A stretch of 64,000 bases of DNA from Acidobacteriota bacterium. GTDB lineage: Bacteria; Acidobacteriota; Polarisedimenticolia; J045. Shown here piece by piece: positions 12,017 through 37,002 of the stretch. Position numbers and translations under genes: made by a program. The DNA lies in contig JAUZRX010000024.1 in NCBI GenBank assembly GCA_030949985.1, positions 2,526 through 66,525 of the forward strand, given 5' to 3'. Numbering within the stretch: the first letter of the stretch is position 1; each line of letters opens with the position of its first letter. The notes under the pieces were generated by a model. It had not been told where the DNA came from and searched no databases. It saw only the letters and a list, made by a program, of their open reading frames with translations.

Positions 12017-12385
12017 ATGAGACATCGCTGGGGATACAGGAAGCTCGGGAGAAAGTCGGAGCATCGCAGGGCGACCCTGCGTAACCTGGCTACCGCACTC
12101 TTCGTCCACGAGCGCATCACAACCACGCTGGCCAATGCCAAGGAACTGCGTTCCTACGCCGAGCGCCTGATCACCCGCGCGCGTAAGGACAGCGTTCATT
12201 CGCGGCGGATCGTGGCCAGGGAATTGCACAGCCGGACGGTCGTCAAGCATCTGTTTGACGAGATCGCTCCGCGTTTTGCGGATCGACCGGGCGGCTACAC
12301 GCGAATCATGAAGATGATGCCGCGACGTGGCGACAACGCCGAGATGGCGATCATCGAACTGGTCTCGCGCAAGGACGGTGAGTAG
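12017..12385 (+). CDS. rplQ: 50S ribosomal protein L17
   Basis: [45 protein letters not shown] canonical L17; last gene of alpha operon. Confidence 0.95.
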   Translation: [122 protein letters not shown]

Positions 12386-12523: not shown

Positions 12524-15500
12524 ATGTCGCGACGGACAGCAATAAAGAAAGTCCTTGTCATTGGATCCGGACCGATCGTGATCGGCCAGGCCTGTGAGTT
12601 CGACTACAGCGGCACACAGGCATGCAAGGCCTTGCAGGAAGAGGGCATCGAAGTCGTCCTGGTCAATTCGAACCCGGCGACAATCATGACTGATCCCGAA
12701 GTGGCGGAAAGAACATATGTGGAGCCGCTGACGGTCCCTTCCGTAAGGGGCATCATCGCGCGCGAACGACCGGACGCAGTGCTGGCGACCGTCGGAGGAC
12801 AGACCGCACTGAACCTGGCGGTGGACCTCGATGAGGCCGGCGTCTTCGAAGAGTTCGGGGTGCGGATGATCGGGGTCAACCGCAAGGCTGTCGAGGTTTG
12901 CGAAGATCGCGAGAAGTTCCTCGCTGCCGTGGCGGGCGTCGGGCTGGAAATGCCGCGGGGGCGTTTCGCGACAAACCTCGACGAGGCGCGGGAGATCCGT
13001 GACGCGATCGGGTTTCCGCTGGTGATTCGGCCGTCTTTTACGCTGGGTGGTAGCGGCGGGGGCATTGCCTGGAACGACGAGGAGTTGACCGCGATCGCCG
13101 GCCAGGGGATCGACCTGTCGCCGATCGGTCAGGTCCTGATCGAGGAGTCGATCATCGGCTGGAAGGAATATGAACTGGAGGTGATGCGTGACGAGGCGGA
13201 CAACGTCGTCATCATTTGCAGTATCGAAAACTTCGATGCGATGGGTGTGCACACGGGCGACTCGATCACCGTCGCGCCGGCCCAGACGTTGACCGACCGT
13301 GAATATCAGTTGATGCGTGACGCTGCGATTCGAATCATTCGTGCCGTCGGGGTGGAAACCGGGGGCAGTAACATCCAGTTCGCCATCGATCCGGAAAGCG
13401 GCAGAATGCTGGTTATCGAGATGAATCCGCGGGTCTCGAGGTCGTCGGCATTGGCCTCCAAGGCGACCGGATTTCCGATTGCGCGCATCGCCGCCAAACT
13501 TGCCATCGGTTACACCCTCGACGAGATACCCAACGACATCACCAGGGAAACGCCGGCAAGCTTCGAGCCTTCACTGGACTACGTCGTGGTCAAAGTCCCC
13601 CGGTGGGCGTTCGAGAAATTCCCGTCGACCGCCCCCGACCTCGGAACCCAGATGCGCTCGGTAGGCGAAGCGATGGCCATCGGGCGCACCTTTCCGGAGG
13701 CGCTGCAGAAGGCGTTGCGGAGCCTCGAGACCGGCCGCTTCGGGCTCGGCGGAGATGGGACCCAAGTCGTTGAACCGGCGCGCCTGAACGAACGCATGGC
13801 GACTCCGAACTGGCAGCGCTTGTTCTACATCAAGCATGCGTTGCTGGCCGGAGAGAGTGTCGAGCGAATTTCCCGGATCACGCGGGTCGACCCGTGGTTC
13901 CTCAAGCAAATCGAAGAGCTCGTCGGGGTGGAAGGCCGGCTGCGTGCGTTCCGTCTCGACAGCGTTCCCGAGGAATTGCTGCGACGTGCCAAGCGCTTCG
14001 GTTTTTCCGACAGGCAGCTGGCGGTTCTGCTCGACTCCAGGGAAGAAGACGTGCGGCGGCGGCGCTGGGATATCGGTCTGCGACCGGTGTTCAAGCGGGT
14101 GGACACTTGCGCGGCGGAGTTCGAGGCGCATACACCCTATCTCTACTCGACCTACGAAGACGAATGTGAGGCGGAGCCCACGGATCGGAAAAAGGTGATG
14201 GTTCTGGGCTCGGGGCCGAACCGGATCGGGCAGGGGATCGAGTTCGACTACTGCTGCTGTCATGCTTCTTTCGCGCTGCGTGAGGAAGGCGTCGAGTCGA
14301 TCATGGTCAACTGCAACCCGGAAACCGTGTCGACCGATTTCGATACATCGGATCGGCTCTACTTCGAACCGTTGAACCTGGAGGACGTGCTGGAGATCGT
14401 CCATCGGGAGCAGCCCGACGGCGTGATCGTCCAATTCGGCGGTCAGACCCCGCTCAAGTTGGCGCTGCCGCTCAAGGAGGCGGGTGTGCCGATCCTGGGC
14501 ACCTCGCCGGAGAGTATCGACCTGGCCGAGGACCGCGAGCGATTCGGTGCGCTGCTGGGCGAACTGGGGATCAAGGCCCCGGAGTGGGGCACAGCCCGGT
14601 CCCTCGAAGAAGCCCGGGACATCGCTCGTCGTATCGGCTTCCCCCTGCTGGTGCGGCCGTCATACGTTCTCGGCGGGCGCGCGATGTTCATCTGCTGGGA
14701 CGAGGAATCGCTGTCGGTGATGACGCGCAAGGCGGTCGAGGCCTCTCCGGAACATCCGGTACTGCTCGATCGTTTTCTCGAAGACGCATTCGAGATCGAT
14801 GTCGACGCGCTCTGCGACGGCGAGCAGGTGGTCGTCGGGGCGGTGATGCAGCATATCGAGGAGGCGGGAATCCACTCGGGGGACAGCGCCTGCGTGATCC
14901 CGCCCTACCACGAGACGGTGCGGCGGCACGAGGACGAGTTGCGGCGCATCACCCGGGAGCTGGCGTTGGCCTTGAATGTGCGGGGCCTGGTCAATATCCA
15001 GTTCGCGATCCGGGACGATACGGTCTACGTGCTGGAGGTCAATCCGAGGGCTTCCCGGACCGTACCCTTCGTCGCCAAGGCGACGGGGCTTCCGCTGGCC
15101 GCGCTGGCGACGCGGGTCATGCTGGGCCGGAGCCTCGAGGAGCTGGGCGTGCGCGAAAGGCAAGTGGAGGGCGCGGTGTTCATCAAGGAGCCCGTGCTGC
15201 CCTGGGCGCGTTTTCCCGGCGAGGATCCGGTGTTGGGGCCGGAGATGAAGTCCACCGGGGAGGTGATGGGCGTCGGCGTCGATTTCGGCGAGGCCTTTCT
15301 CAAGGCGCAGTGGGGGGCCGGTGAGGATCTGCCCACGGAAGGACGCGCCTTCCTTTCGGTGCACGACCGTGACAAGCCGGGTCTGCTGGCTGTGGCCCAG
15401 GACCTGGTCGAACTGGGTTTCGTATTGCTGGCCACGGCGGGCACCGCCGAGTTTCTCCGGGGCCACGGGCTCGAGGTGGAAACGGTGTTCAAGGTCAACG

Positions 15501-15745
15501 AGGGTCGTCCGCACGTGGTGGACCGGCTGCTCAGCGGCGATGTGCAGGTGGTGATCAACACGCCCCTCGGTGCACCCTCTTTCTACGACGAACGGGCGAT
15601 TCGACTCAGTGCTCTCCAGCGCCGGATCCCGTTGATCACGACCCTGACCGGCGCCGCTTCGGCGGTGAGGGCGATTCGTACGCGGCAGGCTCAGAATCTG
15701 AGCTTCCGCTGTCTGCAGGAACTCCATGCCCAGCGACCGGACTGA
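12524..15745 (+). CDS. carB: Carbamoyl-phosphate synthase large subunit
   Basis: 1073 aa; duplicated ATP-grasp halves ([26 protein letters not shown] and [25 protein letters not shown]), MGS-like C-term. Confidence 0.95.
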
Positions 15746-16400
15746 GCTCCCCCCCGGCGCTCGGCGGCTGCCGCGGCCTCCCGAGGTGCTGCTTTTCGAT
15801 CTCGACGGGGTGCTGGTGGAGACTTTCGACGCGTGGGTCGCGGTGCTCGACGCCTGCCGCCGGCATCGGGGTCTGGCGCCGTTGGGACCGGAACCGATCC
15901 GGCGCACCTGGGGCCAGGGAATTCTGGCGGACTGCCGTACTTTTTTCCCGGGTACGGACCCCGCGCGGCTGGCGCGGGAATACGACCAGGGCTTCGCCCG
16001 CCACCTGGAGAAGGTGAAACCAATGGCCGGTGTGGGGGCGTTGCTGACCCTGTTGCGGCGGCGAGGGATCCCCACGGCGGTGGTGACCAACTCGCCGGCG
16101 GCCATGACCCGACGCCTGCTGGCCGGCGTGCAGGCGGACGGGCGGCCGCTGGGAGAGTTCTTCGATGTCGTGGCCTGTGGAGACGAGGTGCAACGGGGAA
16201 AACCGGCACCGGAATTGCTCGAACTCGCCCTCGAACGGCTGGGGCACGGCGTCCCGGGTTCGGTGATGGTGGGGGATACGGACAACGATCGGTTGGCGGC
16301 GCAGGCGGCCGGTATCCCTTTCGTCGGATTTTGCATCTCTGGAGACGAGTGCGTGGAGTGCCTCGACCAGTTGGCGCCCCGGCTCGGTTTGAGCGAATAA
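15726..16400 (+). CDS. HAD-superfamily hydrolase (phosphoglycolate phosphatase-like)
   Basis: Motif [11 protein letters not shown], motif III K (RGKPAPE), motif [16 protein letters not shown]; overlaps carB 3' end by 20 nt. Confidence 0.7.
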
Positions 16401-16457
16401 TCTTCCTCGGTGCCGGTGGACCCTCCGCCCGGGAGGGCGCCGGTGGGAGCTGGAACC

Positions 16458-16670
16458 ATGCCGATCTACGAGTTTCAATGCAAGGAGTGCGGCGAGAGTC
16501 TCGAGGCGTTGCGGCGCATGGGTCAGGGAGCCGAAGGGCTGCAATGCCCTCGCTGCGGGAGCCATGAGCTGGTGCAGAAGCTCTCCTCCTTCGCCACCTC
16601 CGGCGGTGCCGCCCCGTCGTGCAGCACCTCGCCCACTTGCGGCGCCGGGGGCGGCGGCGGTGGTGGGTGA
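16458..16670 (+). CDS. FmdB-family zinc-ribbon protein with poly-Gly C-terminal tail
   Basis: MPIYEFQCKECGESLEALRRMGQGAEGLQCPRCGSHELVQ (CxxC-x17-CxxC) then ...CGAGGGGGGG; internal ATG of track ORF 16410. Confidence 0.6.
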   Translation: MPIYEFQCKECGESLEALRRMGQGAEGLQCPRCGSHELVQKLSSFATSGGAAPSCSTSPTCGAGGGGGGG

Positions 16671-16684
16671 GCCTTCTGACCTCG

Positions 16685-16701
16685 CGGGCTCGGTGAGCCC
16701 G
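16685..16701. terminator. Perfect 7-bp GC hairpin (CGGGCTC-GGT-GAGCCCG) between convergent genes
   Basis: Seen in sequence 14 nt after FmdB stop and 30 nt after the stop of the minus-strand regulator; no U-tract. Confidence 0.3.
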
Positions 16702-16732
16702 TAGATGGACAGGCTTCTCCGCCACGCGCTCT

Positions 16733-17824
16733 TCAAGCGGGCGGCCGGCAGAGGCTGAGCACGCCGTGCAGGGGGAGGGTGGTATCCCAGCGGGGATCCG
16801 CCGTACAGCGCCGCAAGACCAGCCTGCCGCGTCGTCGGAGGGCGCCGGCCTCGCTGCGATTTCCCTGGCGCAGGTAGAGTTCCGGCTGGTCGAGCAGGGC
16901 TGCGCCCCGGAGGGCCGGCAGAGCCAGTTCCCGGCTCAGGGCGATGGCCCGGCGCGACCACTTCAGCCCCTCACCGCATCGTCCGGCAAGTGCCGCGCAG
17001 CGGGCGGCCGTGCGCAGGGACTCGATGCGGACCGGAGTTTTCGGCGAGCCCATCTGCAGCGCGCGTCGGCCGAGGGTCCATGCCGCGCGGCGACGTCCCT
17101 GGCGACGATAGACCTCGGCACGCACCGTCGTGGCCAGGGCCGCCACATCGTCGTCAGTCGGCGCATCGTCCGCGGTGCCGATCGCTTCGGCCAGCTCGAG
17201 GGCCTGCTTTGAGTGCGCCGTCGCGAGATGGCTGATCGCGCCCACCAGGCGGGTGAGAGGATCCGGCCTGAGGCCTGCGACCAGCAGGCCCGCCACCGCG
17301 GCCTGTCCGCCCCCGATCTGGGCGGTGGCCAGGGCCAGCACGTCGCCCCGGGATGGGGCGGAGGGCAGGGCCAGGCGGAGTACGTGGCAGGCCGCGTTCC
17401 AGCGGCCGAGGGCGGCTTCGGCCCGGCCCCAGCTGCGCAGACTGGGGCGGTCGAGGGCGGGCTGGCTCCTGGCGTGCAGCGCTCGCAGCACCCGTGTGGC
17501 CCCGAGCAGATCGCCGGCCGCCAGTGCCTGACGCCACCGGACCCGTCCCCCCGCGCCCTCCAGAAGATCTTCATCGAGCAGGGCCGCCAGGCGTGCGGTG
17601 GTTTCTCCGACGCCCTCGCCCAGGGCGCGCAGCAGGCTGAGATAGCGGGAAAGAGTGATGTCGGCCTGGCCCGTTTCCACCCGGGAGAGATGGGAACGGG
17701 TGACACGGACGCCTTCGCCGCGGGTGGCCCGTTCCACGTCGTCGAGCGAGAGTCGGCCTTCAAGGCGGATGTGGCGCAGGGCGCGGCCGAGAGTTGAACG
17801 CAGGGTCTGCTGGCGGGGATGCAT
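16733..17824 (-). CDS. XRE-family HTH transcriptional regulator with ~280-aa helical (TPR-like) C-terminal domain
   Basis: N-terminus MHPRQQTLRSTLGRALRHIRLEGRLSLDDVERATRGEGVRVTRSHLSRVETGQADITLSRYLSLLRALG fits HTH_3; GGAGGA RBS before ATG at 17824 (track ORF extends to 17929); rest Ala/Leu/Arg-rich helical. Confidence 0.65.
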   Translation of the reverse strand: MHPRQQTLRSTLGRALRHIRLEGRLSLDDVERATRGEGVRVTRSHLSRVETGQADITLSRYLSLLRALGEGVGETTARLAALLDEDLLEGAGGRVRWRQALAAGDLLGATRVLRALHARSQPALDRPSLRSWGRAEAALGRWNAACHVLRLALPSAPSRGDVLALATAQIGGGQAAVAGLLVAGLRPDPLTRLVGAISHLATAHSKQALELAEAIGTADDAPTDDDVAALATTVRAEVYRRQGRRRAAWTLGRRALQMGSPKTPVRIESLRTAARCAALAGRCGEGLKWSRRAIALSRELALPALRGAALLDQPELYLRQGNRSEAGALRRRGRLVLRRCTADPRWDTTLPLHGVLSLCRPPA

Positions 17825-18019
17825 CGCGAGTCCTCCTTGAATATGTTTTTTCGGTAGCCCCAGAGTGCCCCCGACGGGGTAGGAAAGAAAAGGGCCCGGG
17901 GCGGAAAAAGGCGACGTGGGAGGCGACAACCGCGAAACCTCGCGCTGGAGCGTGTGTTTTTTGTTGCATCGCTGCGTCCCCGTTTTGGGAATTGCCCCCG
18001 AGAGCGGGGCGTCGGGGAC

Positions 18020-20992
18020 TCAGGCGGTGACGACGGCGATCCGGGCCCGCACCGCGGTCAGCTCTTCGAGCAGCGAGAAGACGCTTGCGGGGCGCTGATT
18101 GGGATCTTTCGAGAGCAGGCGTGTGACCAGTTCTTCCACCGGTTGCGGGATGCCTTCCCGGAATCGGGAAATCGGTGGCGGCGGCTCTTCGATTTGCAGC
18201 CGCAACACCTCCGCCACGTTGTCCGATGCGAAGGGTTCCCGGCCCGTGAGCAAAAAATAGGTCAGTACGCCGATGGCGTAGAGATCGGCGCGCTGGTCCG
18301 CGGCTTCGCCGCGGATCTGTTCCGGGGCCATGTAGGCCGGCGAGCCCATCACCAGTCCTTCGCGGGTCAGGTGCACGTCGCCCTGGCGGGCGATGCCGAA
18401 GTCCACCAGCCGGGGCCGCCCCTCCTGGTCGAGCAGGACGTTTTCAGGCTTGACGTCCCGGTGAACGATGCCCAAGCGGTGGGCGGCGGCCAGGCCCGAG
18501 GCCACGCCGGAGATGAACTCGAGCACCTGGCCGAGGGGAATGGGATGACGGTTGCCGGCCCACTGGCGCAGGTCCACTCCGTCGATGTACTCCATGACGA
18601 TGAAGCGCAGCTCGCGCCAGCGTTCGAAGGTGTGGACCCGCACGATGTTGGGATGGTTGATCTGGCGCGTGAGTCGGATTTCCTGGATGAAACGCTTTTC
18701 CACCGTCTCGCCGATGGGACCGGAGAGTACCTTCAGCGCAACGGGTTCCTCGAGCACCAGGTCCCGTGCGGCGAAGACCGTACCCATGCCGCCGCGCCCG
18801 ATTTCCCGGAGGATCTCGTAGCGGTTGGCCAGCAAGGCGCCGGGCAGCAGGTGGGTACCGTGCAACTCTTCGAGAAGCTGCTGGGCCGAGCCGAGCCGAT
18901 GGGAACGATCGGGAACCAGGCAGCCTCGCACCACGCGCTGGAGCAGGTCCGGGATCGGGTGGCCCGCCCGCTCCGGCAGCCGCGGGGCTTCGGCGCCGCG
19001 GGGCGGGGGAGGGAGCGTACCGGTGAGCATCTCCCAGGCCAGCACGCCCAGCAGATAGATATCCGAAGACGGGTCGCAGCGCTCACCGCGCAGGGACTCC
19101 GGGGAGCGGTAAGCGGCAGGGAGGGTCGGATCGTCCGAGTGACGCAGGCCGATGCCGAAGTCGATCAGTCGGGCCTCGAACGATGTGCTGATGATGATAT
19201 TTTCCGGTCGCAGGTTGCGGGCCAGCAGGCCCAGTCCGTGGGCGTAGTCCAGGGCCTCGGCCAGGCGTGTGATGACCTGGATCGATCGCGGAACGTCGAG
19301 GGGGCCTTCGCTGGACAGGATCTCCCGCAGGGACTTGCCGGCGACATGTTCCTCGACGACGAAGATTCCCGCCCCGTCCCGGCCCGCATCGTGAATCGCG
19401 GCGATCGCCGGGTGGTGCAGCCGCGCGATGCGGCGGATATCCGCAAGGATTCTCTCGGCTGCCGACTCGGTGGGAATCAGGGGGGGCGCGAAGCGGCGCA
19501 GGACGACCCGCCGCTCCATGGTGCTGTCGATGGCCAGGAAGGCCTGACCGGGAACGTAGCCCTCCAGCGGCCCCTCGATGGTGTAGCGGTCGGGGGAACT
19601 CGAGGCCGGCCCTGGCTGCTGGTCGATACGTCGTTCGATCTGGGCCAGTCGCTGGGAGGCATCCCGGTAGTTCAACTCGAGGGCCACCACGCGGCCGAGA
19701 GCCGTGGCTGCGTCCCGCAGCTTGCCGGTGCGCTCGAGTACGTTGGCCAGGCGGTACCAGCCCTCCGGATCCGGCTCCCGCTCCGGGTCCGCCAACCCCC
19801 GGCGATAGTGGTCCGCCGCCACCGAGTCCATGCCCAGCCGCTCGAAGAGTCGGCCCAGCCGCATGGCGGCAGCGGTGGCGTCCTCGCTGTCGGCCGCGAT
19901 TCCCTGGAGCACGCGCACCGCCGCGTCCACGTCACCGCAGCGCTCGTAGAGTTCGGAAGCGGTCAGCCGTTCTCCCGCTTCCTCGTAGGCCCTCGCCGCC
20001 TCCGCCAGCTGGCCGCAGGCCTCCAGGCAGCGTGCCGCGTCACGGACCGAACCCGCGTCGCGGAAATGGCGCGCGGCGTCGGCGTAGTCCCCGGCCCGCT
20101 CCATGGCCGCCGCCGCGGCGACGATGTCTCCGGCCGCTTCGTGGGCCCAGGCGGCCTCCGCCGAGCACCCCAGTTGTTCGAGGCAGCCCGCCGCCTGGCT
20201 GGGGTGTCCCGATTCCAGGTAGAGAGCCGCCGCCTCGGCCCAGCGCGAAGCGGCGCGGAAGGCCTCCGCCGCCAGTTCGGGGTCGATTTCACCGGGGTTG
20301 AGCTTCTCGGCGATCTCGGCGGCGCGTTCGTTTTCGCCCGCGGCGAGAAAGGCGCGGATGGCTCGCTCCGGTCGGTGGGCCCGGGCCCAGGCGGCGGCGG
20401 CGTCCCGTGAGCGGCCCGAGCGTTCGAGCCAGCGGGCCCCGCGGTCGGGAATGCCGCTGGCGAGAAACTGTTGCCCGAGCCGGGCCGCCAGGCCCAGCAC
20501 CTCTTTCTGGTCCACGCGGACGTTGCCCGAGCGCAACAGGCTCTCGAGGCAGCGCTCGGCCTTGTCCGGGCAGCGGGCCTCGATGAACAGCCGAGCGGCC
20601 CGAAGAAAATCGCCGGTGTGTTCGTAGAGCGTAGCCGCCGGCTCGGGATGTCCGAGTTGCTCGTGAATCTCGGCGGCCCGCCGGGCCTGGTTGGCCTGGA
20701 CGAAGAGGCGGGCGGCCCGCTCCCGGTCGCCGCAGCGGAGGGCCATCTCGGCGGCCTCGAGAGTCATGCCGCCCATCTCGTACTCCCGGGTCGCGGTGGC
20801 GTGTTCGCCGAGTTCCGAGGCGACCTGGCCGGCGAGGCGATGGTGGCGGCCTTTTTGGTACATTTTCAGCGCCTGGCTGAGTTCACCACCCAGCCGGTAG
20901 AGATCGCCCGCGGTGGAATAGTCTCCCCTCAGGGCGGCCCACCTGGCTTTTCTTGCCCATCCTCGCGCCATCATATGCTCGGGGAAGAACAT
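18020..20992 (-). CDS. Multidomain Ser/Thr protein kinase: N-terminal helical repeat array, pseudokinase domain, then active Hanks-type kinase domain
   Basis: C-terminal domain carries all catalytic motifs (GRGGMG, VALKVL, HRDVKPEN, DFG, APE). The preceding kinase-like domain has DFG but K->R (VVLRRF) and HRD->ARN. The N-terminal ~500 aa are ~19-20-aa repeats (GD..AA..Y/FE..G). Preferred start MFFPEH (GGAGATCC RBS) avoids overlap with the divergent gene; the track ORF extends to 21154. Confidence 0.8.
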   Translation of the reverse strand: MFFPEHMMARGWARKARWAALRGDYSTAGDLYRLGGELSQALKMYQKGRHHRLAGQVASELGEHATATREYEMGGMTLEAAEMALRCGDRERAARLFVQANQARRAAEIHEQLGHPEPAATLYEHTGDFLRAARLFIEARCPDKAERCLESLLRSGNVRVDQKEVLGLAARLGQQFLASGIPDRGARWLERSGRSRDAAAAWARAHRPERAIRAFLAAGENERAAEIAEKLNPGEIDPELAAEAFRAASRWAEAAALYLESGHPSQAAGCLEQLGCSAEAAWAHEAAGDIVAAAAAMERAGDYADAARHFRDAGSVRDAARCLEACGQLAEAARAYEEAGERLTASELYERCGDVDAAVRVLQGIAADSEDATAAAMRLGRLFERLGMDSVAADHYRRGLADPEREPDPEGWYRLANVLERTGKLRDAATALGRVVALELNYRDASQRLAQIERRIDQQPGPASSSPDRYTIEGPLEGYVPGQAFLAIDSTMERRVVLRRFAPPLIPTESAAERILADIRRIARLHHPAIAAIHDAGRDGAGIFVVEEHVAGKSLREILSSEGPLDVPRSIQVITRLAEALDYAHGLGLLARNLRPENIIISTSFEARLIDFGIGLRHSDDPTLPAAYRSPESLRGERCDPSSDIYLLGVLAWEMLTGTLPPPPRGAEAPRLPERAGHPIPDLLQRVVRGCLVPDRSHRLGSAQQLLEELHGTHLLPGALLANRYEILREIGRGGMGTVFAARDLVLEEPVALKVLSGPIGETVEKRFIQEIRLTRQINHPNIVRVHTFERWRELRFIVMEYIDGVDLRQWAGNRHPIPLGQVLEFISGVASGLAAAHRLGIVHRDVKPENVLLDQEGRPRLVDFGIARQGDVHLTREGLVMGSPAYMAPEQIRGEAADQRADLYAIGVLTYFLLTGREPFASDNVAEVLRLQIEEPPPPISRFREGIPQPVEELVTRLLSKDPNQRPASVFSLLEELTAVRARIAVVTA

Positions 20993-21086
20993 AGGATCTC
21001 CCCCCGCCGGGGGGCCACTACCGACTTCGGTCAGAAGTGCTGGTCTCGTGCTAGCTTGGGCGCCAGACTGGCAGAAGGAAGCCCAG

Positions 21087-22931
21087 ATGACCGCTAGACC
21101 CCTGATCGACATGTTGCGCCGGCTGACCCCACCCGCGATCGAGGAGATCCTCATGCGGGAGCGGGTGGTTCGGCGTGCCCAGGCTTACGCGGCCGAAAAT
21201 CGCGTGGACGAGGTCTGGCTCGAGCGGGGCGCCCTGCGGGCTCACGTGTCGGGATCGTCGGAAACGCCCTACCACGCCGTGATTCGCCTGCGGGAGGGGC
21301 ATCTGGATGCCGAATGTTCCTGCCCCTACGAGCGCGGGCTGTGCTGGCATGTGGGGGCCATCCTGCTGACTCTCTCGAGCCACGGAGAACTGATCGACGC
21401 CCTCGAGGAAAACCTGGCCCCCGTCCTCCAGGAGGAGGAAGGCAGCGGGCCTGCCACCGCCGAGGATGACCAGGCGGGCGCTCCGGCCCCGCAAGGCGGG
21501 GTCCGCGCTGCGGGACCCACCGCCGCCCAGCAGGCCGCCTTGCGCCAGGCCCGCCGGGAGGAAGTGCAGGAACATCTGCTGGGCTGGCCTCGCCAGCGCC
21601 TGGTGGACCTGCTGACCGAGTTGGCCCTGGACGACGCCGGAGTGGAGGCCCGGATCCAGCGTTTCCAGGAGGAGCCCACCGACATCGACCTGCGGCTTTT
21701 TCGGCAGGCTGGAAAGACGGCTCTCCGCCCGGGGGTCGTGTTGGATCGCTACGAGGTGGCCCGTATCGCCGCGGACTTGCACGAGGTGGCCGCTTCGGTG
21801 CGGCGCCTGGTCCATTCCGGGCACCCGGAGCAAGCCCTGGATCTGCTGCTGGAACTGGCCTCCATGGCCTGGGCTCGGGCGGCCGAAGTGGACGACCGGG
21901 ACGGGGCCCTCGAAGGATTCGTGCGGGAAGTCCTGCGCACCTGGATCCAGGGCTGGGAAGAGATCGACGGGCGGGACCGCCAGCGCCTGGCTCGCGAGGT
22001 TTTCGGCTGGCTGATGGAGGACGCCGGGGCCCTGACCCGAGGCCTGATCTTCGAGGGCCGTGGGACCCTCGGACCGACCGGTCTCGAGACGCTGTCGAAC
22101 CTGCTCGCGCCGTTGCTCGAGCAGCGGCAGCAGCAGCGTCCGGCCATCCTGGGCGGAGAGGATGGCTGGACCCACGCGGATCCCCTGGCGGAGCGGATTC
22201 GGGCGGCCTTGCGGGAAACCGCCGAGGCCCGTGGCGACCTGGATGAATTTCTGCGGCACTGCGACCCGTCGGGAGGGCACGGCGTCGAGGTGCTGGCGGC
22301 TGCCCGCCGCCTGGAGAGAGAGGGCCGGCTCGACGAGGCCCTGGACTGGGTCGAAAAAGGTCGTCGCCGGGCCCGCGGCACGGCCCGGGCCAGCCTCGAG
22401 GACCTGCGGATTTCCCTGCTCCACCGCCTCGGTCGCAGGCGCCAGGCCATCGAGGCCGCCTGGGAGATCTTCGTCGCTCAGCCCGGGGCCCACACCTTCG
22501 CTCGACTCCAGGAAACGGCCGGCGAGCACGAACGCGGGCAATGGCGGACCCGGGCGATCGACCATGCGGAGGCCAGTTCGGATGCCACGGCTTTCGTGGA
22601 GATTTGCCTGGCGGCCCGGGAGGTCGAGCGGTTGGCGCATCGCCTCGATGCCAGCCCGGGCTTCATCCTGGCCGCCGCGCCGACAGTCCTGGAGCGGACC
22701 GCGCTGATGCTCGAAGATCGCAGCGCCTGGGCGTCTATGAAGATCTACCAGCACCTGGCGACCCGCCTGCTCGCCGAGGGCGACGCACGGCACTACGGCA
22801 AGGTCCGGGAGCATCTGGAAGGCCTTCGCCGGGCCTGCGGGAAAGACGAGAACGGTCCTGCCTGGGAGGCACACCTCGAGCAGCTGGCCAGGAACTTCGC
22901 CGTGGTACGGGCCTGGTTCCCGTCGCCATAG
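21087..22931 (+). CDS. SWIM zinc-finger family protein (N-terminal SWIM CxCx7CxH, long helical C-terminal region)
   Basis: HLDAECSCPYERGLCWHVGAILL matches the SWIM CxCxnCxH signature; AGGAAG RBS before ATG 21087 (track ORF from 21048); divergent from the kinase gene. Confidence 0.7.
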   Translation: MTARPLIDMLRRLTPPAIEEILMRERVVRRAQAYAAENRVDEVWLERGALRAHVSGSSETPYHAVIRLREGHLDAECSCPYERGLCWHVGAILLTLSSHGELIDALEENLAPVLQEEEGSGPATAEDDQAGAPAPQGGVRAAGPTAAQQAALRQARREEVQEHLLGWPRQRLVDLLTELALDDAGVEARIQRFQEEPTDIDLRLFRQAGKTALRPGVVLDRYEVARIAADLHEVAASVRRLVHSGHPEQALDLLLELASMAWARAAEVDDRDGALEGFVREVLRTWIQGWEEIDGRDRQRLAREVFGWLMEDAGALTRGLIFEGRGTLGPTGLETLSNLLAPLLEQRQQQRPAILGGEDGWTHADPLAERIRAALRETAEARGDLDEFLRHCDPSGGHGVEVLAAARRLEREGRLDEALDWVEKGRRRARGTARASLEDLRISLLHRLGRRRQAIEAAWEIFVAQPGAHTFARLQETAGEHERGQWRTRAIDHAEASSDATAFVEICLAAREVERLAHRLDASPGFILAAAPTVLERTALMLEDRSAWASMKIYQHLATRLLAEGDARHYGKVREHLEGLRRACGKDENGPAWEAHLEQLARNFAVVRAWFPSP

Positions 22932-22965
22932 CCTGCCGGCCCGGAAGTCGAGGGGAACGACGTTT

Positions 22966-23454
22966 TCAGACTCCCGGGAGAGCTTCGAGCAGGACCACCA
23001 CCCGCGTCCCGTCGCCGTTTCCGCCGGCCTCCACCGAAGCCCAGGCGAGGGTCCCACGGATCTGGCCGATGGCCTGCTCCTCGCTGGGGTGTCTGCTGAG
23101 ATCCTCGAACTCCGGCCGGCCCACGATCGTTCGCAGGGCCTCGAGAGCGGCCGCGACGCTCTCTTCCGCCGGAAGTTGCCCGGCATCCAGCCGATACCAC
23201 GCCACCGACAGCGGGCTTGCGCCGAAGCGACCCTGGTCGAGCAATCTCCAGGATTTCGGCCAGGGCACTTCGGGCGGGGCCTCGGGCGGGGTGGCGAGAG
23301 CTCCGGCGCGTGGCCCGCCTTCCGGGAAGAGGGCTGCGCCCGTCGGGGCGTCCTCCGCTCCGGCCCGCCGGTCAGCGTTGTCGGCAGGGCCGCAACCTGC
23401 GGCCAGGAGCGTCGTCAGCAGAAGCGATGCGAGCCGGGCGCTGCGGAATCCCAT
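22966..23454 (-). CDS. Small lipoprotein (162 aa), unknown function
   Basis: MGFRSARLASLLLTTLLAAGCGPADN: signal peptide plus lipobox LAAGC. Confidence 0.55.
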   Translation of the reverse strand: MGFRSARLASLLLTTLLAAGCGPADNADRRAGAEDAPTGAALFPEGGPRAGALATPPEAPPEVPWPKSWRLLDQGRFGASPLSVAWYRLDAGQLPAEESVAAALEALRTIVGRPEFEDLSRHPSEEQAIGQIRGTLAWASVEAGGNGDGTRVVVLLEALPGV

Positions 23455-23576
23455 GGCCCGAGCATGGCACGAAGCCCCCCGGCTCCGCCATCGCCGGGGC
23501 GGTGTTTCCCGCGCGGCAGGGACCTATATTCGCCGGGAAGGTGTGCGGGACCGCTGAACGGCGGCGCGAGGAGACC

Positions 23577-25022
23577 GTGCGGACGACCAGAGGAGTCGAG
23601 ACCACCCCCGTCATCGAAGCGGGTACCGAGTTCGCCGGAGGATGGCGGGTCGAGCGGGTATTGACGGAGGTTGCCGGCCTCGAAGCCTACTACGCCGTCG
23701 ATGGCGCCTACGGGCGGGCGATTTGCTTCCTGCTGCCGCCCGACGCTCCAGACCCCGAACTCGACGAGGAGGCCGCCGCAGCCTGGGGCACGACGCGCTG
23801 CATTCTGAGAGATCCGGTCCTCGGACGTATCGTCCTCGATGAAGTGCCCGAGGGACCTCTCTTCGCCGACCGGCTCGCGGAGGGCTGGACTCCCGGCGCG
23901 GCCTTCCTCGATCCGATCAGCACCGTCCTTCGCCGGGAGCACCGCCGGGGGCGCTGGCACGGTCAACTGGCGCCCGATCGTGTGGTTCTGGGAGCGGACC
24001 ACGTAGCCATCGCCGGGTGGGGACTGTGTGACGGGGACGCTTCCGATCTCAGGGCGCGGGACCTGGCAGGTCTGGCCGCCCTCTCCGGTCACGCCGATCG
24101 CTCCAGGGGCGGCGTCGGAGACGCCGGGCCCGGGGGCTCCGACAGGTCGGTGTCGCCGTCGTCCGCGGCCCTCTCCGCGCTCTGTGCCGCGATGGCTTCC
24201 GATCATCTCCCGACCCTGCGGGCGGCCCTCGATCGCTGGCGCGAAGATGGGGGAGACGAGCAAGTTCCCGAGTATCGAAGGGCGCTCGACGCCCTCGAGC
24301 GCATCGAACGCAAGGTCGACGAACACCTGGAAGCCGCTCGCCTGCAGGTCGAGCGCGGCGATCCCCTCGGGGCCGTGGCGGCCTGCCGGGAGGTCGTTCG
24401 CCTGGGCGCCGAGGACCGGGCCTTGCCCCTGATGAAGCAGGCCCGGCGCCAGGCCCGGGACATGCTCGGCGGCCGCCGGCCTTTCGTGCGCCGCGCCTGG
24501 ATTGTCGCGGCGGGAGCGGTGGGGCTGCTTCTCTGCGGCCTGCTGGGCTGGTGGTTGATGGGTCGGGGCGGGGACAGTGGCGAGATCGCGCGGCAGGCGG
24601 CACTGATGGCGCGGACGCACGGGGAGCGGGCCGTGATCGCCTGGTTGCTCGATCTCAGGGTGACGGGGGAGAGTTCCGCCGAGACCGAGGCCCTGCTCAC
24701 CGGGCACCTCCAGGCGCTGGCGGCCCAGGAACGGCAGAAGATGCTGGAGCTCCGGCGGGAAATCGTTTCCCAGGGGGCGAGGCCCCGCCAGGCCGATCGC
24801 CTGGCCGAGGAATCGCTCGCCCGGCTGGACGCCCTGGCCGCCGCCGATCCGCTCAGCGCTGGTTTCGGAACGCGCCTGACCCGGGTCCTGATCGACGTGG
24901 ACAAGGCGGCGGCCCGTTACCGGGCGGGAGCACGGATCGACAACGCCAGCGCCCTGCGGGCCGTCGAGCAACTGCTTCGCGAAGATCCTCTCTTCGGTGC
25001 GGCTGGAGGAGAAAAACGATGA
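23577..25022 (+). CDS. Membrane-anchored kinase-like pseudokinase with periplasmic helical domain
   Basis: N-terminal ~230 aa resemble a protein kinase fold with every catalytic motif degenerate (AICFLL for VAIK, HGQLAPDRVVL for HRDLKPENILL, VAIAGWGLC for DFG). Single TM AWIVAAGAVGLLLCGLLGWWLMG, then ~150-aa helical ectodomain. GTG 23577 after GAGGAG; alternative GTG 23541. Track ORF 23217 overlaps the opposite lipoprotein gene. Confidence 0.5.
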   Translation: MRTTRGVETTPVIEAGTEFAGGWRVERVLTEVAGLEAYYAVDGAYGRAICFLLPPDAPDPELDEEAAAAWGTTRCILRDPVLGRIVLDEVPEGPLFADRLAEGWTPGAAFLDPISTVLRREHRRGRWHGQLAPDRVVLGADHVAIAGWGLCDGDASDLRARDLAGLAALSGHADRSRGGVGDAGPGGSDRSVSPSSAALSALCAAMASDHLPTLRAALDRWREDGGDEQVPEYRRALDALERIERKVDEHLEAARLQVERGDPLGAVAACREVVRLGAEDRALPLMKQARRQARDMLGGRRPFVRRAWIVAAGAVGLLLCGLLGWWLMGRGGDSGEIARQAALMARTHGERAVIAWLLDLRVTGESSAETEALLTGHLQALAAQERQKMLELRREIVSQGARPRQADRLAEESLARLDALAAADPLSAGFGTRLTRVLIDVDKAAARYRAGARIDNASALRAVEQLLREDPLFGAAGGEKR

Positions 25023-26773
25023 GCGGCCTCGGTGCCATGCCCGGCAGGTTCCGGTGTCCCGCCGTCTGGGTTCTCTTCGTACTCCTGGGAGTGTCGGGGC
25101 CGAGCCAGGCGCTCCGCCTGGGGAACCGCGCTGCTGCGGACAGGAGCGCGGCGCGGCCCCTGCGGGAGGTCGATCTGGTGCGCGTACTCGCCGGCGAGGT
25201 CGAGGCGGGCGCCGCCGCGAGAGCGGCTCTCGAGCGCCTGCCCGCCCGCTGTCGACCGAGTCGGGCCCTGGCGAAGGAGGCCTGCGACGACGATCTCCGC
25301 TGCGCCTGGCTCTACGCCCGGGGCGAGGTGGTCCGTGCCTGGAGCGCTGAGGTGGCGCGGGGGCGGAAAGATGCGGCGGCCTGGCTGCACCGTGCGGCGG
25401 ACCGCCTGGCCGCCGGCGGGGCCTGCGGGCGCGGGGCGGCGCGCCGGGGAGCGTGGGAAGCCGATCGCCGCCAGGCGGCCGTGGATGATGGACGGGTTCA
25501 GCTGGCTCGGTTGCTGGAAGTGCGCCGACGGACCCACGCCGCCCTGCTGGCGGGAAGCGTCGCGCGCAGGGTGGAAGCGCTGGTGGCGGCGGCTCGTACG
25601 CAGGGTCTCGGGGCCGTCGATCCTCAGGCCCTCGCCGCCTTGCGCGGCGAGATCTTCACTGCCGCCCAGCGTGGCACGTGGTTGCTGGCCCACCCGGGGC
25701 TGGATCGGTTCCGCAAGATCCTGCAGGGGCTGTGGCAGCCCGCGGGGGGCATGCCCCAGGGCTGCGGAGACGAACTTTTCCGGCCCGATCTGCTGGACGA
25801 CCAGTGGCGCGGCTACCTGGTGCGTGAGGTCGTCCCCAGGGCCCTGTCCTGCCTGTCCGACGGTCTGCCCCGGGCCCTGGCCGGCAAGGGGCTGGCGCCC
25901 GCGGATCCCGTCGCGGGGAAGGATGTGGCCCGGGCTCTCGAGGCTCTCGCCCGGCGGGATTCCGGCGGACGCCATTTCTCGAGGGATCCTGCTCTCGGAG
26001 CCCGAATGGAGGCACTGGAAAGGGCGTTTCGCGCCGGGCGGCAGGTGGCCTCGAGGCCCGTCGCCGCGACTTCCTCTCCCGAGGCGGCCAGGCGGCCGGT
26101 GCCGGCACCTCCCCCCCGTCGGTCGCCCCGATCCTCGGGAGGCCGGGCTCCGCGGAAAGTCGCGCCCGCTCCCGCGAAGGTCGCCTCCCGCAGCGATCCC
26201 CTGCTGGTGAGGCGGGCGGAGAAGGTCCAGCGATTCCTGGAGACTCGGGAAGAACTGGTCGCCGCCGCCCGGGCGGCGAGGGACTCCCGTGCCCGCCGGC
26301 GTCTCGTCCAGCGGCTGGTGGTCGCCCTGCACCGCGGGGTGTGCGCCCCCCTCGAGAAGCTGGATCCCGTCGAACTCGCCGCCGCTCGGCGGGTCTTGCT
26401 CGACCTGGGATACCAGGCCGACGAGGCCGCCTGCAGCGCCAGGGAGGGGGAGGCCTACCTCGACCAGTTGCTGGAAGCGGCGGAAAATCTCCAGCGGCTA
26501 CGGACGGTGGCGCTGATGCGCCGGGCGGCACGGGAGATCGCCGATCGCAGCCCCAGCCTGGCGCTGGTCACCCTCGATCATGTGCCCAAGCGCTTCCAGG
26601 GGAGTTCGTGGACCCTCCTGCGGGCCTGGGCGGCCCGGGAGGAGGGTGATCACGTGACGGCCGACCGGCTGCTCTCGCGCATGGACGAGGAAACCCTCGA
26701 TCGTCTGCGCGCCAGCGGACAGGAAGAACTGGCGCGGGTGGTGGCCCACGCCTGGGTCGCGCGCTCGCCCTGA
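25019..26773 (+). CDS. Secreted/periplasmic Cys-containing helical protein (584 aa), unknown function
   Basis: ATG overlaps upstream stop (ATGA); GGAGGAG RBS; signal peptide MSGLGAMPGRFRCPAVWVLFVLLGVSGPSQA; no recognisable domain. Confidence 0.55.
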   Translation: MSGLGAMPGRFRCPAVWVLFVLLGVSGPSQALRLGNRAAADRSAARPLREVDLVRVLAGEVEAGAAARAALERLPARCRPSRALAKEACDDDLRCAWLYARGEVVRAWSAEVARGRKDAAAWLHRAADRLAAGGACGRGAARRGAWEADRRQAAVDDGRVQLARLLEVRRRTHAALLAGSVARRVEALVAAARTQGLGAVDPQALAALRGEIFTAAQRGTWLLAHPGLDRFRKILQGLWQPAGGMPQGCGDELFRPDLLDDQWRGYLVREVVPRALSCLSDGLPRALAGKGLAPADPVAGKDVARALEALARRDSGGRHFSRDPALGARMEALERAFRAGRQVASRPVAATSSPEAARRPVPAPPPRRSPRSSGGRAPRKVAPAPAKVASRSDPLLVRRAEKVQRFLETREELVAAARAARDSRARRRLVQRLVVALHRGVCAPLEKLDPVELAAARRVLLDLGYQADEAACSAREGEAYLDQLLEAAENLQRLRTVALMRRAAREIADRSPSLALVTLDHVPKRFQGSSWTLLRAWAAREEGDHVTADRLLSRMDEETLDRLRASGQEELARVVAHAWVARSP

Positions 26774-26803
26774 AGCCGACACGGCTCGAGGGCCGGCCGC
26801 CGG

Positions 26804-27358
26804 TCAGGTCGTTTCTTTCTTCACGGGAGCAAGAGTGACGGAAAGATCCCGTCCCATCATCTGGCGGGAACGGTCCTCGGGAATGCCGTGCTCCTGGACC
26901 GCTTCCACCACGCGGTCGAGCACCATCTCTCCCATTTCGGGGCGGCGCATTTCACGCTTGCGGTACATCACGGTGACGCGCACCTTGTGCCCCTGGTCGA
27001 GAAACTTGATCACTTTCCGTGTCTTGGTTTCGAAGTCGTGTTCATCGATGGCAGGCCGGTACTTGATCTGCTTGACCTCGACCTGGTGCTGCTTTTTCTT
27101 GGCGGCCTGAGCCTTCTTCTGCTGCTCGTAGTTGTACCGCCCGTAGTCCATGATGCGGCAGACGATGGGTCGGGCATCGGCGGCGACTTCGACGAGATCC
27201 AGGCCCTTGGACTGGGCGATGGAGAGGGCTTCTTCGACCGGGACGACGCCCACCTGCTGGCCCTCTTCATCGATCAGCCGGACGGGGCTGATGCGGATCA
27301 TGCGATTGATACGGACCTTGGGTGGGCCCTGACGTTCTACGATTCCTGGTCTTCTCAT
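26804..27358 (-). CDS. infC: Translation initiation factor IF-3
   Basis: VRINRMIRISPVRLIDEEGQQVGVV...PIVCRIMDYGRYNYEQQKKAQAAKKKQ...TVMYRKREMRRPEMG aligns to IF3 N and C domains; exact start (AUG vs non-canonical) uncertain. Confidence 0.9.
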   Translation of the reverse strand: MRRPGIVERQGPPKVRINRMIRISPVRLIDEEGQQVGVVPVEEALSIAQSKGLDLVEVAADARPIVCRIMDYGRYNYEQQKKAQAAKKKQHQVEVKQIKYRPAIDEHDFETKTRKVIKFLDQGHKVRVTVMYRKREMRRPEMGEMVLDRVVEAVQEHGIPEDRSRQMMGRDLSVTLAPVKKETT

Positions 27359-27536
27359 CCGGTGGCTTGCGTCCTCCTTGGCGCCCTGGGCGGGCGCTGG
27401 TTCAATTTTTGCGCCGGGCCTTCGCCATGTCCGGCCAGACGCCCCATCGTATCATCATCTCCGGCCTGCGCCGGTACTTTGCGGAGAATCTCGGTCCTCG
27501 GCGGCCCGGGAGCAAGGGGGCTCGGGTAGGAGAAAA

Positions 27537-28634
27537 ATGAGCGAAGCCAGGCGGTTGCTTTCCTTTGGCGCCGGGCCGGCCCTGTGGCCCGACCCGGTTC
27601 TCGAAGAGGCCTCCGGCGGTCTGCTGCCCGGCGCCGGCGGGGGGCTGTCCGTTCTCGAGTGGAGCCATCGGGGCGGGGCCTACGGCCAACTCCACGAAAG
27701 GGCTCTCGAGCGGCTGCGCCGCCTGTTGGGGGTCGGGCCGTCCCACGAGGTGCTCCTGCTTCCGGGAGGAGCGACCCTGCAGTTCGCCATGGTGCCCGCC
27801 AACCTCCGCCCACCCGGGAGAAGCGCCGACTACCTGGTCACCGGCCACTGGGCCCGCCGGGCCGCCCGCTACGCGGCCCTGACGGGGGCCGTCAACGTGG
27901 TGGCCAGTTCCGAGAGTGAAGGCTTTGCCCGGATTCCTCCCCCCGGACAATGGGCTCTCGATCCCCGGGCGGCCTACTTCCACATCACGACCAACAACAC
28001 GATCGCCGGCACACAGCTCCATGTACTGCCGTCTCCGGGGAAGGTCCCCCTGGTGGCCGATGCCAGCTCCGATATTCTGCTGCGGGAACTGCCGGTGACG
28101 AACTTCGACCTGCTCTACGCCGGGGCCCAGAAGAATCTCGGGCCGGCGGGCCTGGCGGTGGTGGTGATTCGCCGCGCCCTGCTGGAGGCGGCGGAGGGCA
28201 TGCCCGAGGGTGTTCTCGGCTACCGGGATCATGCGCAAAGCGGCTCTCGACTCAATACCCCGCCCACGGCGCTGGTTTTCCTGCTGGAGAAGATGCTGGC
28301 TTGGATCGAGGCCGAGGGGGGGAGGTCCGAGATGATCCGGCGCGCCCGGGAACGGGCCGCCTTGATCTATGGGGCTCTCGACCGCCATCCGGAGGTCTAC
28401 CAGCCCTCCGCGCGGCACGAGGACCGCTCGGTGGTGAACGTGGTCTTCCGCCTGCGCTCGAAGGATCGGGAAGAGGCCTTCATCGAGGCTGCGGCCAGGG
28501 AAGGCATGGTGGGGCTGGCGGGACATCGCACGGTGGGGGGGCTGAGGGCCTCGCTCTACGCGGCCATGCCGGTGGACGGCGCTCGCCGCCTGGCGGCCCT
28601 GATCGATGCATTCGCCGACCGGGAGAGGCGTTGA
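27537..28634 (+). CDS. serC: Phosphoserine aminotransferase
   Basis: LLSFGAGPA...HITTNNTIAGTQ...DLLYAGAQKNLGPAGLAVVVIRR (PLP-lysine) typical SerC; GGTAGGAG RBS; internal ATG of track ORF 27378. Confidence 0.9.
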   Translation: MSEARRLLSFGAGPALWPDPVLEEASGGLLPGAGGGLSVLEWSHRGGAYGQLHERALERLRRLLGVGPSHEVLLLPGGATLQFAMVPANLRPPGRSADYLVTGHWARRAARYAALTGAVNVVASSESEGFARIPPPGQWALDPRAAYFHITTNNTIAGTQLHVLPSPGKVPLVADASSDILLRELPVTNFDLLYAGAQKNLGPAGLAVVVIRRALLEAAEGMPEGVLGYRDHAQSGSRLNTPPTALVFLLEKMLAWIEAEGGRSEMIRRARERAALIYGALDRHPEVYQPSARHEDRSVVNVVFRLRSKDREEAFIEAAAREGMVGLAGHRTVGGLRASLYAAMPVDGARRLAALIDAFADRERR

Positions 28635-28656
28635 CCCCTCCGCGGTCGGCGTGTCG

Positions 28657-33725: not shown

Positions 33726-33728
33726 CGC

Positions 33729-34838: not shown

Positions 34839-34853
34839 GTTCTGTCCCGCCCG

Positions 34854-36908: not shown

Positions 36909-37002
36909 GGTCTGGGCTCCTGTGGCTCGGATTCTCCGGCGGGGCCGCACCGGTCTCGCGGGAGTCCGCGCTGCTGCGGCAGCTTCACTTCGAAGATAGC
37001 TT

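Follow-up and report, generated by a model that had tools for sequence, protein, structure and literature searches.

A chromosomal gene block of Acidobacteriota that appears to hold two separable units, a tandem pseudokinase-kinase with a SWIM partner and an MviN-like envelope pseudokinase with a secreted partner

Bacterial pseudokinases have, to our knowledge, been little studied; the families described so far belong mostly to the Actinobacteria, Firmicutes, and Proteobacteria. Proteins in which a pseudokinase and a kinase domain occur in tandem have precedents in the JH2-JH1 domains of JAK and in the tandem kinase proteins of plants. Membrane-anchored pseudokinases are already known in bacteria, including MviN/ActPs3, EssB/YukC, and GLW (PMC12599244). 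All motifs of ActPs3/MviN are degraded, the activation loop carries a deletion, and a transmembrane (TM) segment lies C-terminally, while EssB/YukC of the type VIIb secretion system of Firmicutes is a membrane pseudokinase that acts as a scaffold and not as an enzyme (PMC12599244). A first-pass annotation had regarded the combination of genes described here as an undescribed system, but its membrane pseudokinase is of a kind already known.

We analyzed a block of seven genes, designated A to G, within a 64-kb window (the whole stretch of DNA that was analyzed) from an acidobacterial genome with a G+C content of ~67%. Reading frames were picked by codon-position GC and homology, and all seven genes were found near the coordinates that the first-pass annotation had given. 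Its account of the flanks was also correct: rpoA, rplQ (12017-12385), carB, and a HAD gene lie to the left, and infC (26804-27358, minus strand), a housekeeping gene with IF3_N and IF3_C domains that is convergent with G, lies to the right, followed by genes for a class-V aminotransferase and an aldehyde dehydrogenase. The same was true of its domain reading, i.e., a tandem pseudokinase-kinase, a SWIM protein, and a kinase-fold membrane protein with a coupled secreted partner. Orthologues with 40-80% identity are found in approximately 20 other loci, indicating that the genes are under selection. Three mirror-strand ORFs (21051-23186, 23415-24971, and 24917-26332, all on the minus strand) have similar codon-position GC, but match no family and have no homologues, and were rejected. 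An Rfam scan of positions 15000-29000 returned zero matches, and terminator-like sites were no more numerous than expected from shuffled sequence.

On balance, we interpret the block as a vertically inherited stretch of chromosome in a single clade of uncultured Acidobacteriota, holding two separable conserved units, a cytoplasmic kinase unit and an MviN-like envelope module. A mobile or horizontally acquired island was considered and dropped, since the window contains neither tRNA genes nor integrases, only short chance repeats surround the block, and there is no compositional break. The G+C content of the block (~0.70) is like that of much of the window, and the lower values to the left correspond to the ribosomal-protein operon. 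These features, and the retention of the HAD-to-infC frame in relatives (L015), leave no particular meaning in the earlier description of the genes as "wedged" between translation loci. Gene A (16458-16670, plus strand, 70 aa) is an FmdB-family zinc ribbon, scoring 52.3 bits against PF09723 and 60.7 bits against TIGR02605 (cutoff 31.3) and carrying a CxxC...CxxC motif, read as CKECG...CPRCG. It had been counted as part of the block, but is not conserved there: no homologue occurs at the corresponding position in related loci, and in L015 the HAD gene is followed directly by B. A probably lies outside both modules.

The cytoplasmic unit would consist of C and D, joined in certain lineages by B. 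C (20992-18020, minus strand, 990 aa) has an N-terminal TPR region followed by two kinase domains, K1 (residues ~465-715) and K2 (~720-985); it contains no TM segment and is thus soluble. Against the Pkinase model (PF00069), C scored 256.6 bits over two stretches (cutoff 31.7), the best of which spans residues 779-1023 of the 1044-aa ORF, and TPR_14 and SNAP were also matched. Orthologue alignments to C start at residue 8, and translation probably begins at one of two ATG codons, at 20974 or 20971. K2 possesses the canonical motifs GRGGMG, VALK, HRD (844), DFG (864), and APE (889), all of which are invariant in nine orthologues, and both its HMM score and its catalytic motifs identify it as a Hanks-type Ser/Thr kinase. 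In K1, the beta3 Lys is replaced by Arg (VVLRR) and HRD by ARN or ART, whereas DFG is retained in eight of the nine proteins; these substitutions are kept across the nine orthologues, as befits a pseudokinase. K1 and K2 share 30% identity (E 3e-31), and their mean identities across the nine orthologues are 59 and 80%, respectively. By comparison with further proteins of the tandem pseudokinase-kinase type, K2 is probably regulated or targeted by K1 and the TPR region.

D (21087-22931, plus strand, 614 aa) encodes a helical protein with a SWIM zinc finger and a DUF6880 domain. The latter (PF21810) scored 84.2 bits against a cutoff of 27.3, the SWIM match (PF04434) is marginal (20.7 bits vs. a cutoff of 19.6), and the metal ligands C77, C79, C86, and H88 (CxC...CxH) are invariant in 26 orthologues. 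A search of PDB sequences with D gave no match. C is the divergent neighbor of D in all 13 loci for which upstream sequence is available, and across many lineages identity ranges from 60 to 70% for C and from 45 to 83% for D. Alignment of 13 orthologous intergenic regions revealed a motif at 20981-20995, ~10-15 nt upstream of the start of C, which reads GGGGAAGAACATAGG in the window and CCCGTGGGAAGATAGG in the orthologue consensus (plus strand); on the strand of C it reads CCTATCTTCCCACGGG. TATCTT in this intergenic region could be a -10-like element; the sigma-70 consensus promoter scan gave nothing. B (17824-16733, minus strand, 363 aa) lies downstream of C in the same direction, with AAGGAGG upstream of its ATG at 17824, and encodes an XRE-type HTH protein (HTH_31, 27.5 bits vs. 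a cutoff of 27) with a TPR-like C-terminal region that matches TPR_12 weakly. B orthologues adjoin C in two loci (L005 and L015), are one gene away in three (L007, L008, and L014), and do not occur next to C in L016 or L017; B is thus an optional component of the C-D module. D would most likely be a partner or substrate of C, and B a facultative output of the unit. No relevant publication emerged from a literature search on SWIM domains together with Hanks kinases or on bacterial proteins that have two kinase domains. The constant pairing of C and D would place DUF6880 in a conserved functional context for the first time.

The core of the second unit is F (23577-25022, plus strand, 481 aa), a bitopic membrane pseudokinase. 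The protein is identical to the NCBI MAG protein Q9Q40_07305, and no contig on record came up when its exact sequence was looked up. It is composed of a truncated kinase-fold domain (residues ~17-175), a disordered linker, a cytoplasmic helical domain (194-298), one hydrophobic TM segment (304-329) that is Arg-rich on its N-terminal side and lies C-terminal to the kinase fold, and an outer helical domain (334-470). The Pfam kinase model detected C but not F. The kinase fold of F rests on a reverse profile search, in which Pkinase proteins were nine of the ten best weak matches to the F-family profile, and on an AlphaFold2 model (pLDDT 83.7), for which the Foldseek matches are all kinases. The closest solved structure is the pseudokinase of Mycobacterium tuberculosis MviN (Rv3910, MurJ; PDB 3UQC), a resemblance at the fold level only (13% identity). 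In MviN, the ATP pocket is occupied by F724 and W789. When PDB sequences were searched with the F-family profile, 3UQC was not recovered at E up to 1, and the best, marginal matches were CaMKII and StkP. The catalytic motifs are degraded, with A-I-x-F in place of A-x-K and hence no beta3 Lys, H128-G129-Q in place of HRD, and G147-W148-G149 in place of DFG. In the model, only ~6 residues lie between GWG (147-149) and the helix at 155-174, no alphaG-alphaI helices follow, and the activation loop appears to have been deleted. As modeled, F is a truncated and catalytically dead kinase fold. The F family is small, with 23 clusters (50% identity) in a set of 1.84 billion representatives, and was found in Acidobacteriota MAGs only. 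E, F, and G gave zero family matches in Pfam, NCBIfam, and PADLOC, and we found no paper on DUF6880, which agrees with the earlier view that these genes are uncharacterized. F is a new pseudokinase family that current family libraries miss.

G (25019-26773, plus strand, 584 aa) is translationally coupled to F, its ATG overlapping the F stop codon as ATGA. It encodes a secreted, all-helical (TPR-like) protein with a signal peptide, which is Cys-rich and consists of two domains linked by a disordered Pro/Ala/Arg stretch. A PDB sequence search with the G family found no match, and an hhalign comparison of the F and G families detected no domain in common. E (23454-22966, minus strand, 162 aa), in convergent orientation to D and divergent orientation to F, encodes a small lipoprotein with the lipobox LLAAGC. 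Its homologues are present in related loci (L004, L005, L007-L010, L012-L014, L017, L019, L022, L024, and L025), accompanying the PMT-F-G genes in L010 but C-D in L017. A gene for a PMT-family glycosyltransferase is located directly upstream of F and co-directional with it in 11 of 15 lineages, and is, after infC, the most constant neighbor of F-G. No such gene was found across the window's 64 kb, and the association with the glycosyltransferase therefore does not hold at this locus. The envelope unit would comprise E, F, and G; in its ancestral form it would also have had the gene for this PMT-family (GT-C) glycosyltransferase immediately upstream of F. The outer helical domain of F and the co-translated G are predicted to act jointly in the periplasm. 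By analogy with MviN, F may be a non-catalytic scaffold that couples a polyprenol-dependent enzyme of the envelope to cytoplasmic regulators, possibly after being phosphorylated by a real kinase such as C.

The separability of the two units became apparent from a comparison of ~20 related Acidobacteriota loci. In 13 of 13 loci, G comes after F, and the convergent infC comes after G in each of the 10 loci that extend far enough. The genes B-C-D-E-(PMT)-F-G lie within ~10 kb in the window and in L005, L007, L008, L013, L014, and L015, and the same D-to-G order is seen in L009, L022, and L024, where the sequence starts at or within D. C-D is located ≤10 kb from F-G in 10 of 13 informative F loci, but this arrangement does not extend to all lineages. 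In the MAG GCA_964420365.1, F-G-infC resides on contig CAYQTA010000094 (L010) and C-D on contig CAYQTA010000114 (L016), in another context; L017 has C-D without F-G, while in L006 and L011 no C-D lies within 10 kb of F-G. In all, C-D is unlinked in at least two independent lineages (L016/L021 and L017) and F-G in three (L006, L010, and L011). The split across contigs contradicts the proposal of a self-contained module. Since the related genomes are all MAGs of one phylum, common ancestry, and not selection, may account for part of the conserved synteny. Conversely, the proximity of C-D to F-G in most informative loci and the presence of both in the split MAG could reflect a functional link, and there may be cross-talk between the cytoplasmic and envelope modules. 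Gene structures, folds, catalytic losses, topology, and synteny were observed here, whereas all interactions and the physiological target are inferred.

It is conceivable, in line with the first-pass annotation, that the block encodes one transmembrane Ser/Thr signaling pathway, in which an envelope signal is sensed by G together with the outer domain of F, the pseudokinase of F recruits or activates C, and D and/or B provide the output. The clustering of the genes from B to G in the window and six related loci is consistent with this idea, as are the retention of both units in the split MAG and the lack of any membrane or sensor domain in C itself; MviN-PknB serves as a precedent for docking between a pseudokinase and a kinase (PMC12599244). 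Nevertheless, we consider a single pathway doubtful, because the two units are unlinked in the lineages listed above, the gene orientations imply four transcription units, and F-G is tied more constantly to PMT than to C-D. The complete genome CP070706 carries F-G, and no D orthologue from it surfaced, although this is weak evidence from a non-exhaustive search. A fuller version would be an undescribed four- to six-component phospho-signaling pathway across the membrane, where the envelope state is monitored by G and F's outer domain, F recruits C via kinase-fold contacts, and C phosphorylates D and/or B, tuning a GT-C glycosyltransferase pathway. We regard this as quite unlikely; if true, it would be the equivalent, in Gram-negative bacteria, of the mycobacterial PknB-MviN-FhaA circuit, although assembled from unrelated components.

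Alternatively, F and G could be structural or assembly factors of the envelope, such as adaptors of a GT-C glycosyltransferase, with the dead kinase fold being only a platform for dimerization or docking. We assign a low probability to this reading, with which several observations agree: F has lost all its catalytic motifs and its activation loop, the PMT, F, and G genes run in the same direction in 11 lineages, G belongs to a type of protein (Cys-rich, periplasmic, TPR-like) that is common among envelope assembly factors, and EssB/YukC of type VIIb secretion sets a precedent (PMC12599244). A role of the C-D pair, or of the whole block, in Ser/Thr-kinase-based anti-phage defense appears very improbable. 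C scores high against the PADLOC kinase models PD-T4-6 and mad6, D weakly matches PDC-S62, and a distant SWIM-DUF6880 protein (P0069) directly follows a type I restriction-modification specificity gene rather than a kinase gene. However, the PADLOC matches of C cover the generic kinase domain only, and C falls well short of the NCBIfam cutoffs for MAD6 (253.7 vs. 460 bits) and PglW (118.2 vs. 990 bits). Methyltransferase or BREX genes were not found nearby. C-D is moreover fixed in the chromosome among housekeeping genes across many lineages, and the lack of integrases, tRNA genes, flanking repeats, and compositional anomalies likewise speaks against defense.

Under the favored interpretation of two separable units, F extends the MviN-type layout of dead kinase fold, TM segment, and outer domain to a stand-alone protein in Acidobacteriota. 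Its dedicated secreted partner and usual co-directional PMT gene suggest that control of polyprenol-dependent envelope synthesis by pseudokinase scaffolds may extend beyond the mycobacterial case. A practical limit is that all carriers are uncultured MAGs.

Compared with described systems, D is a clear DUF6880 member. C is like JAK and the plant tandem kinases in that a dead kinase domain immediately precedes an active one, and like PknG in that a TPR region is part of the same polypeptide, N-terminal in C and C-terminal in PknG. Unlike known tandem pseudokinase-kinase proteins, C is bacterial, soluble, and constantly paired with a SWIM-DUF6880 gene. F has the overall architecture of EssB/YukC, namely a cytoplasmic pseudokinase at the N terminus, whose motifs are degraded and whose activation loop is shortened, then one TM segment and an extracellular domain, but neither its gene context nor its closest fold match is that of the T7SSb protein. 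With ActPs3/MviN it has in common the degraded motifs, the apparent deletion in the activation loop, and the C-terminal TM segment. Further traits of the ActPs3/MviN type are a lack of ATP binding, phosphorylation by a Hanks kinase, and recruitment of an FHA regulator. No FHA gene was present among the scanned window ORFs, and no PknB-type membrane kinase was found nearby. The MviN pseudokinase is fused to a flippase, whereas F is a stand-alone protein of 481 aa with an additional cytoplasmic helical domain and, unlike MviN, a dedicated secreted partner, G. Moreover, the ActPs3 family is mainly actinobacterial, while F comes from Acidobacteriota, and its sequence does not place it in that family. 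F thus resembles MviN in looks and probably in mode, yet is not filed as a member of ActPs3.

We resolved the block into seven genes, A to G, flanked on the left by rpoA, rplQ, carB and a HAD gene and on the right by infC, a class-V aminotransferase gene and an aldehyde dehydrogenase gene. Since the G+C content of the window is high (0.61-0.74), raw ORF lists were full of spurious frames. The coding register was set by codon-position GC, which left the strand undecided; strand and start were chosen from family matches, homologues and start-codon context. A (16458-16670, forward strand) is a clear FmdB zinc-ribbon protein by Pfam and NCBIfam and the sole gene of the block without a positional counterpart at any related locus; its C-terminal tail is Gly-rich (CGAGGGGGGG). 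B (17824-16733, reverse) encodes an XRE-HTH protein with a marginal HTH_31 match and a TPR-like region, C (20992-18020, reverse) a 990-aa protein with TPR repeats and two kinase-like domains (K1 and K2), and D (21087-22931, forward; Q9Q40_07295) a SWIM and DUF6880 protein. They are followed by E (23454-22966, reverse), a lipoprotein gene with the lipobox LAAGC, by F (23577-25022, forward), encoding 481 aa with the same sequence as Q9Q40_07305, a hypothetical protein of an Acidobacteriota MAG, and by G (25019-26773, forward), encoding 584 aa with a signal peptide, whose ATG overlaps the stop codon of F. These models agree with the gene list and the rest of the descriptive part of the first-pass annotation.

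Related loci came from scanning species-representative genomes with the F family and metagenomes with the D family, and from looking up the contigs of F and D homologues; all window proteins were mapped onto them by tblastn. All carriers were Acidobacteriota MAGs. F was followed by G at all 13 loci with downstream sequence (a 4-nt overlap was called in four lineages), and a convergent infC followed G at all 10 loci extending far enough. Likewise, the divergent neighbor of D was C wherever sequence upstream of D was available (13 of 13 loci). The C-D pair lies within 10 kb upstream of F in 10 lineages (the window, L005, L007, L008, L009, L013, L014, L015, L022, and L024), three lineages (L006, the complete genome CP070706; L010; L011) lack C-D across the 8 kb or more available upstream of F, and C-D occurs without E, F, G or a PMT/PMT_2-family GT-C glycosyltransferase gene (PMT) in ~9-10 kb downstream at three loci (L016, L021, and L017). 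L016 and L021 are probably one organism, because their intergenic sequence is identical. A single MAG (GCA_964420365.1) contributes both L010 and L016, on separate contigs, so that both units are present there, unlinked. These observations support two conserved units, C-D and the genes around F-G, which are neighbors by descent.

PMT stands immediately 5′ of F in 11 of 15 lineages, at loci L006-L015 and L024, preceded in some loci by ferrochelatase. The window (at 23455-23576), L004, L005, and L022 have lost PMT from this site, and no homologue was found across the whole 64-kb window. E accompanies PMT-F-G in L010 and L012 and C-D in L017, while B adjoins C in the window, L005, and L015, lies one gene off in L007, L008, and L014, and gives way to other genes in L016 and L017. 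Since L015 otherwise keeps the same frame (HAD-B-C-D-E-PMT-F-G-infC-Aldedh), the window has gained A and the aminotransferase gene and lost PMT. In L014 (CAVPCQ010000006, 7496-11390), hemH, PMT and F are each split into at least two adjacent tblastn segments, which suggests frameshifts, either assembly errors or pseudogenization of the PMT-F stretch. A mobile origin of the block was rejected, as searches for tRNA genes and Rfam families found none, the repeats are chance ones, and there is no compositional break; the only compositional shift nearby is the lower-GC ribosomal operon. A second, unrelated kinase-type system, a complete PrkA (AAA_PrkA and PrkA)/DUF444/SpoVR operon of the YeaG-YeaH-YcgB stress kinase type, lies 5 kb right of the block (32223-37031, reverse).

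F had been proposed to be kinase-like. At face value this reading fails, as no Pfam, NCBIfam or PADLOC model matches F, but three independent lines give a kinase fold. Searched exhaustively, the F-family profile yielded just 23 true relatives (E below 1e-30). Its weak matches (7e-8 to 1e-3) cover profile positions ~77-187, nine of the ten best tested being Pfam Pkinase proteins, and the same segment gave marginal PDB matches to CaMKII and StkP. hhalign aligned HRRGRWHGQLAPDRVVL of F with HRLGIVHRDVKPENVLL of K2, and all Foldseek PDB matches of the AlphaFold2 model (mean pLDDT 83.7, built from 24 sequences) were protein kinases. Together, these analyses show that F has a kinase fold. F lacks the beta3 lysine (A-I-x-F there), H-G-Q replaces HRD, and an invariant G-W-G replaces DFG; in the predicted structure the activation segment is almost absent and helices alphaG-alphaI are absent. 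Because the single transmembrane segment (304-329) follows an Arg-rich stretch, the pseudokinase and a helical domain are placed in the cytoplasm, with ~150 helical residues outside. Several of the weak matches (P0086, P0088, P0091, and P0116) are long bacterial proteins that carry three kinase-like stretches each, which suggests that multi-kinase-domain proteins are no rarity in metagenomic data; our literature search found no description of them.

Pfam recognizes the TPR repeats and both kinase stretches of C, which share 30% identity. K2 has complete catalytic motifs (GRGGMG, VALK, HRD, DFG, and APE), whereas in K1 the beta3 Lys is Arg (VVLRR) and HRD reads ARN, with DFG retained. The K1 substitutions (AR[N/T], LRR) are kept across nine orthologues, among which K2 averages 80% identity, K1 59% and the TPR part 60%. 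With K1 dead, K2 complete and no hydrophobic segment detected, C is a cytoplasmic tandem pseudokinase-kinase. Orthologue alignments start at residue 8, and ATG 20992 falls within a conserved non-coding motif, so the true start is probably 20974 or 20971. This 16-nt element (20981-20995; CCCGTGGGAAGATAGG on the forward strand, CCTATCTTCCCACGGG on the C strand) is near-invariant in 11 of 13 orthologous C-D intergenic regions (L005-L026), ~10-15 nt 5′ of the C start, and the spacer outside it is not conserved. It could be a -10-like promoter that gives an mRNA with a short leader, or a site bound by a regulator.

C and D, at times with B, would form a cytoplasmic Ser/Thr kinase module. In other tandem pseudokinase-kinase proteins, the dead domain regulates or targets the live one; by analogy, K1 and the TPR array probably regulate or target K2. 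D clearly belongs to DUF6880, and its SWIM ligands are invariant. Because its pairing with C never varies, it is the obvious candidate for a partner or substrate of C. We found no paper mentioning DUF6880. The only distant SWIM and DUF6880 homologue found (P0069, 28% identity; L018 980-4025, a farmland-soil contig) overlaps the end of a type I restriction-modification specificity (Methylase_S) gene, and D itself weakly matches PADLOC PDC-S62, hints that other DUF6880 proteins may be defense-associated. A defense role for C-D is unlikely, however: the high-scoring PADLOC matches reflect kinase domains in general, C falls far short of the curated cutoffs for MAD6 and PglW, and the genes sit at a fixed housekeeping position.

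E (no family in Pfam, NCBIfam or PADLOC), ancestrally PMT, and then F and G, which have no detectable shared domain, would constitute an envelope module. The first-pass annotation had regarded the block as one self-contained module, which is only partly borne out: the two units are frequently close and co-occur. It is possible on the same grounds that C is a kinase acting on F, but repeated unlinking and four separate transcription units argue against an obligatory relationship and against a single module. Alternatively, F-G could reasonably have a purely structural role, like that of EssB/YukC.

According to a recent review, in the ActPs3/MviN family all motifs are degraded, the activation loop is deleted, aromatics fill the ATP site, and the transmembrane segment is C-terminal to the domain; the Mycobacterium tuberculosis MviN pseudokinase is a non-catalytic platform that, once phosphorylated by PknB, recruits FhaA and restrains peptidoglycan precursor export (PMC12599244). 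F shares the degraded motifs, the activation-loop deletion (in its predicted structure) and the transmembrane segment C-terminal to the kinase fold. Since no sequence-level link between the F family and 3UQC was found in the PDB, we call F MviN-like rather than a member of ActPs3/MviN. Bacterial pseudokinases anchored in the membrane are a known kind, as are Hanks kinases with several domains. New here are an acidobacterial family, small and unannotated, whose MviN-like fold forms a stand-alone protein; the secreted partner that always accompanies it and the glycosyltransferase gene that usually neighbors it; and the invariant pair of a TPR-pseudokinase-kinase and a SWIM-DUF6880 protein. F looks like a free-standing version of the MviN platform; a secreted partner is always encoded with it, and usually so is a polyprenol-dependent envelope enzyme other than that of MviN.
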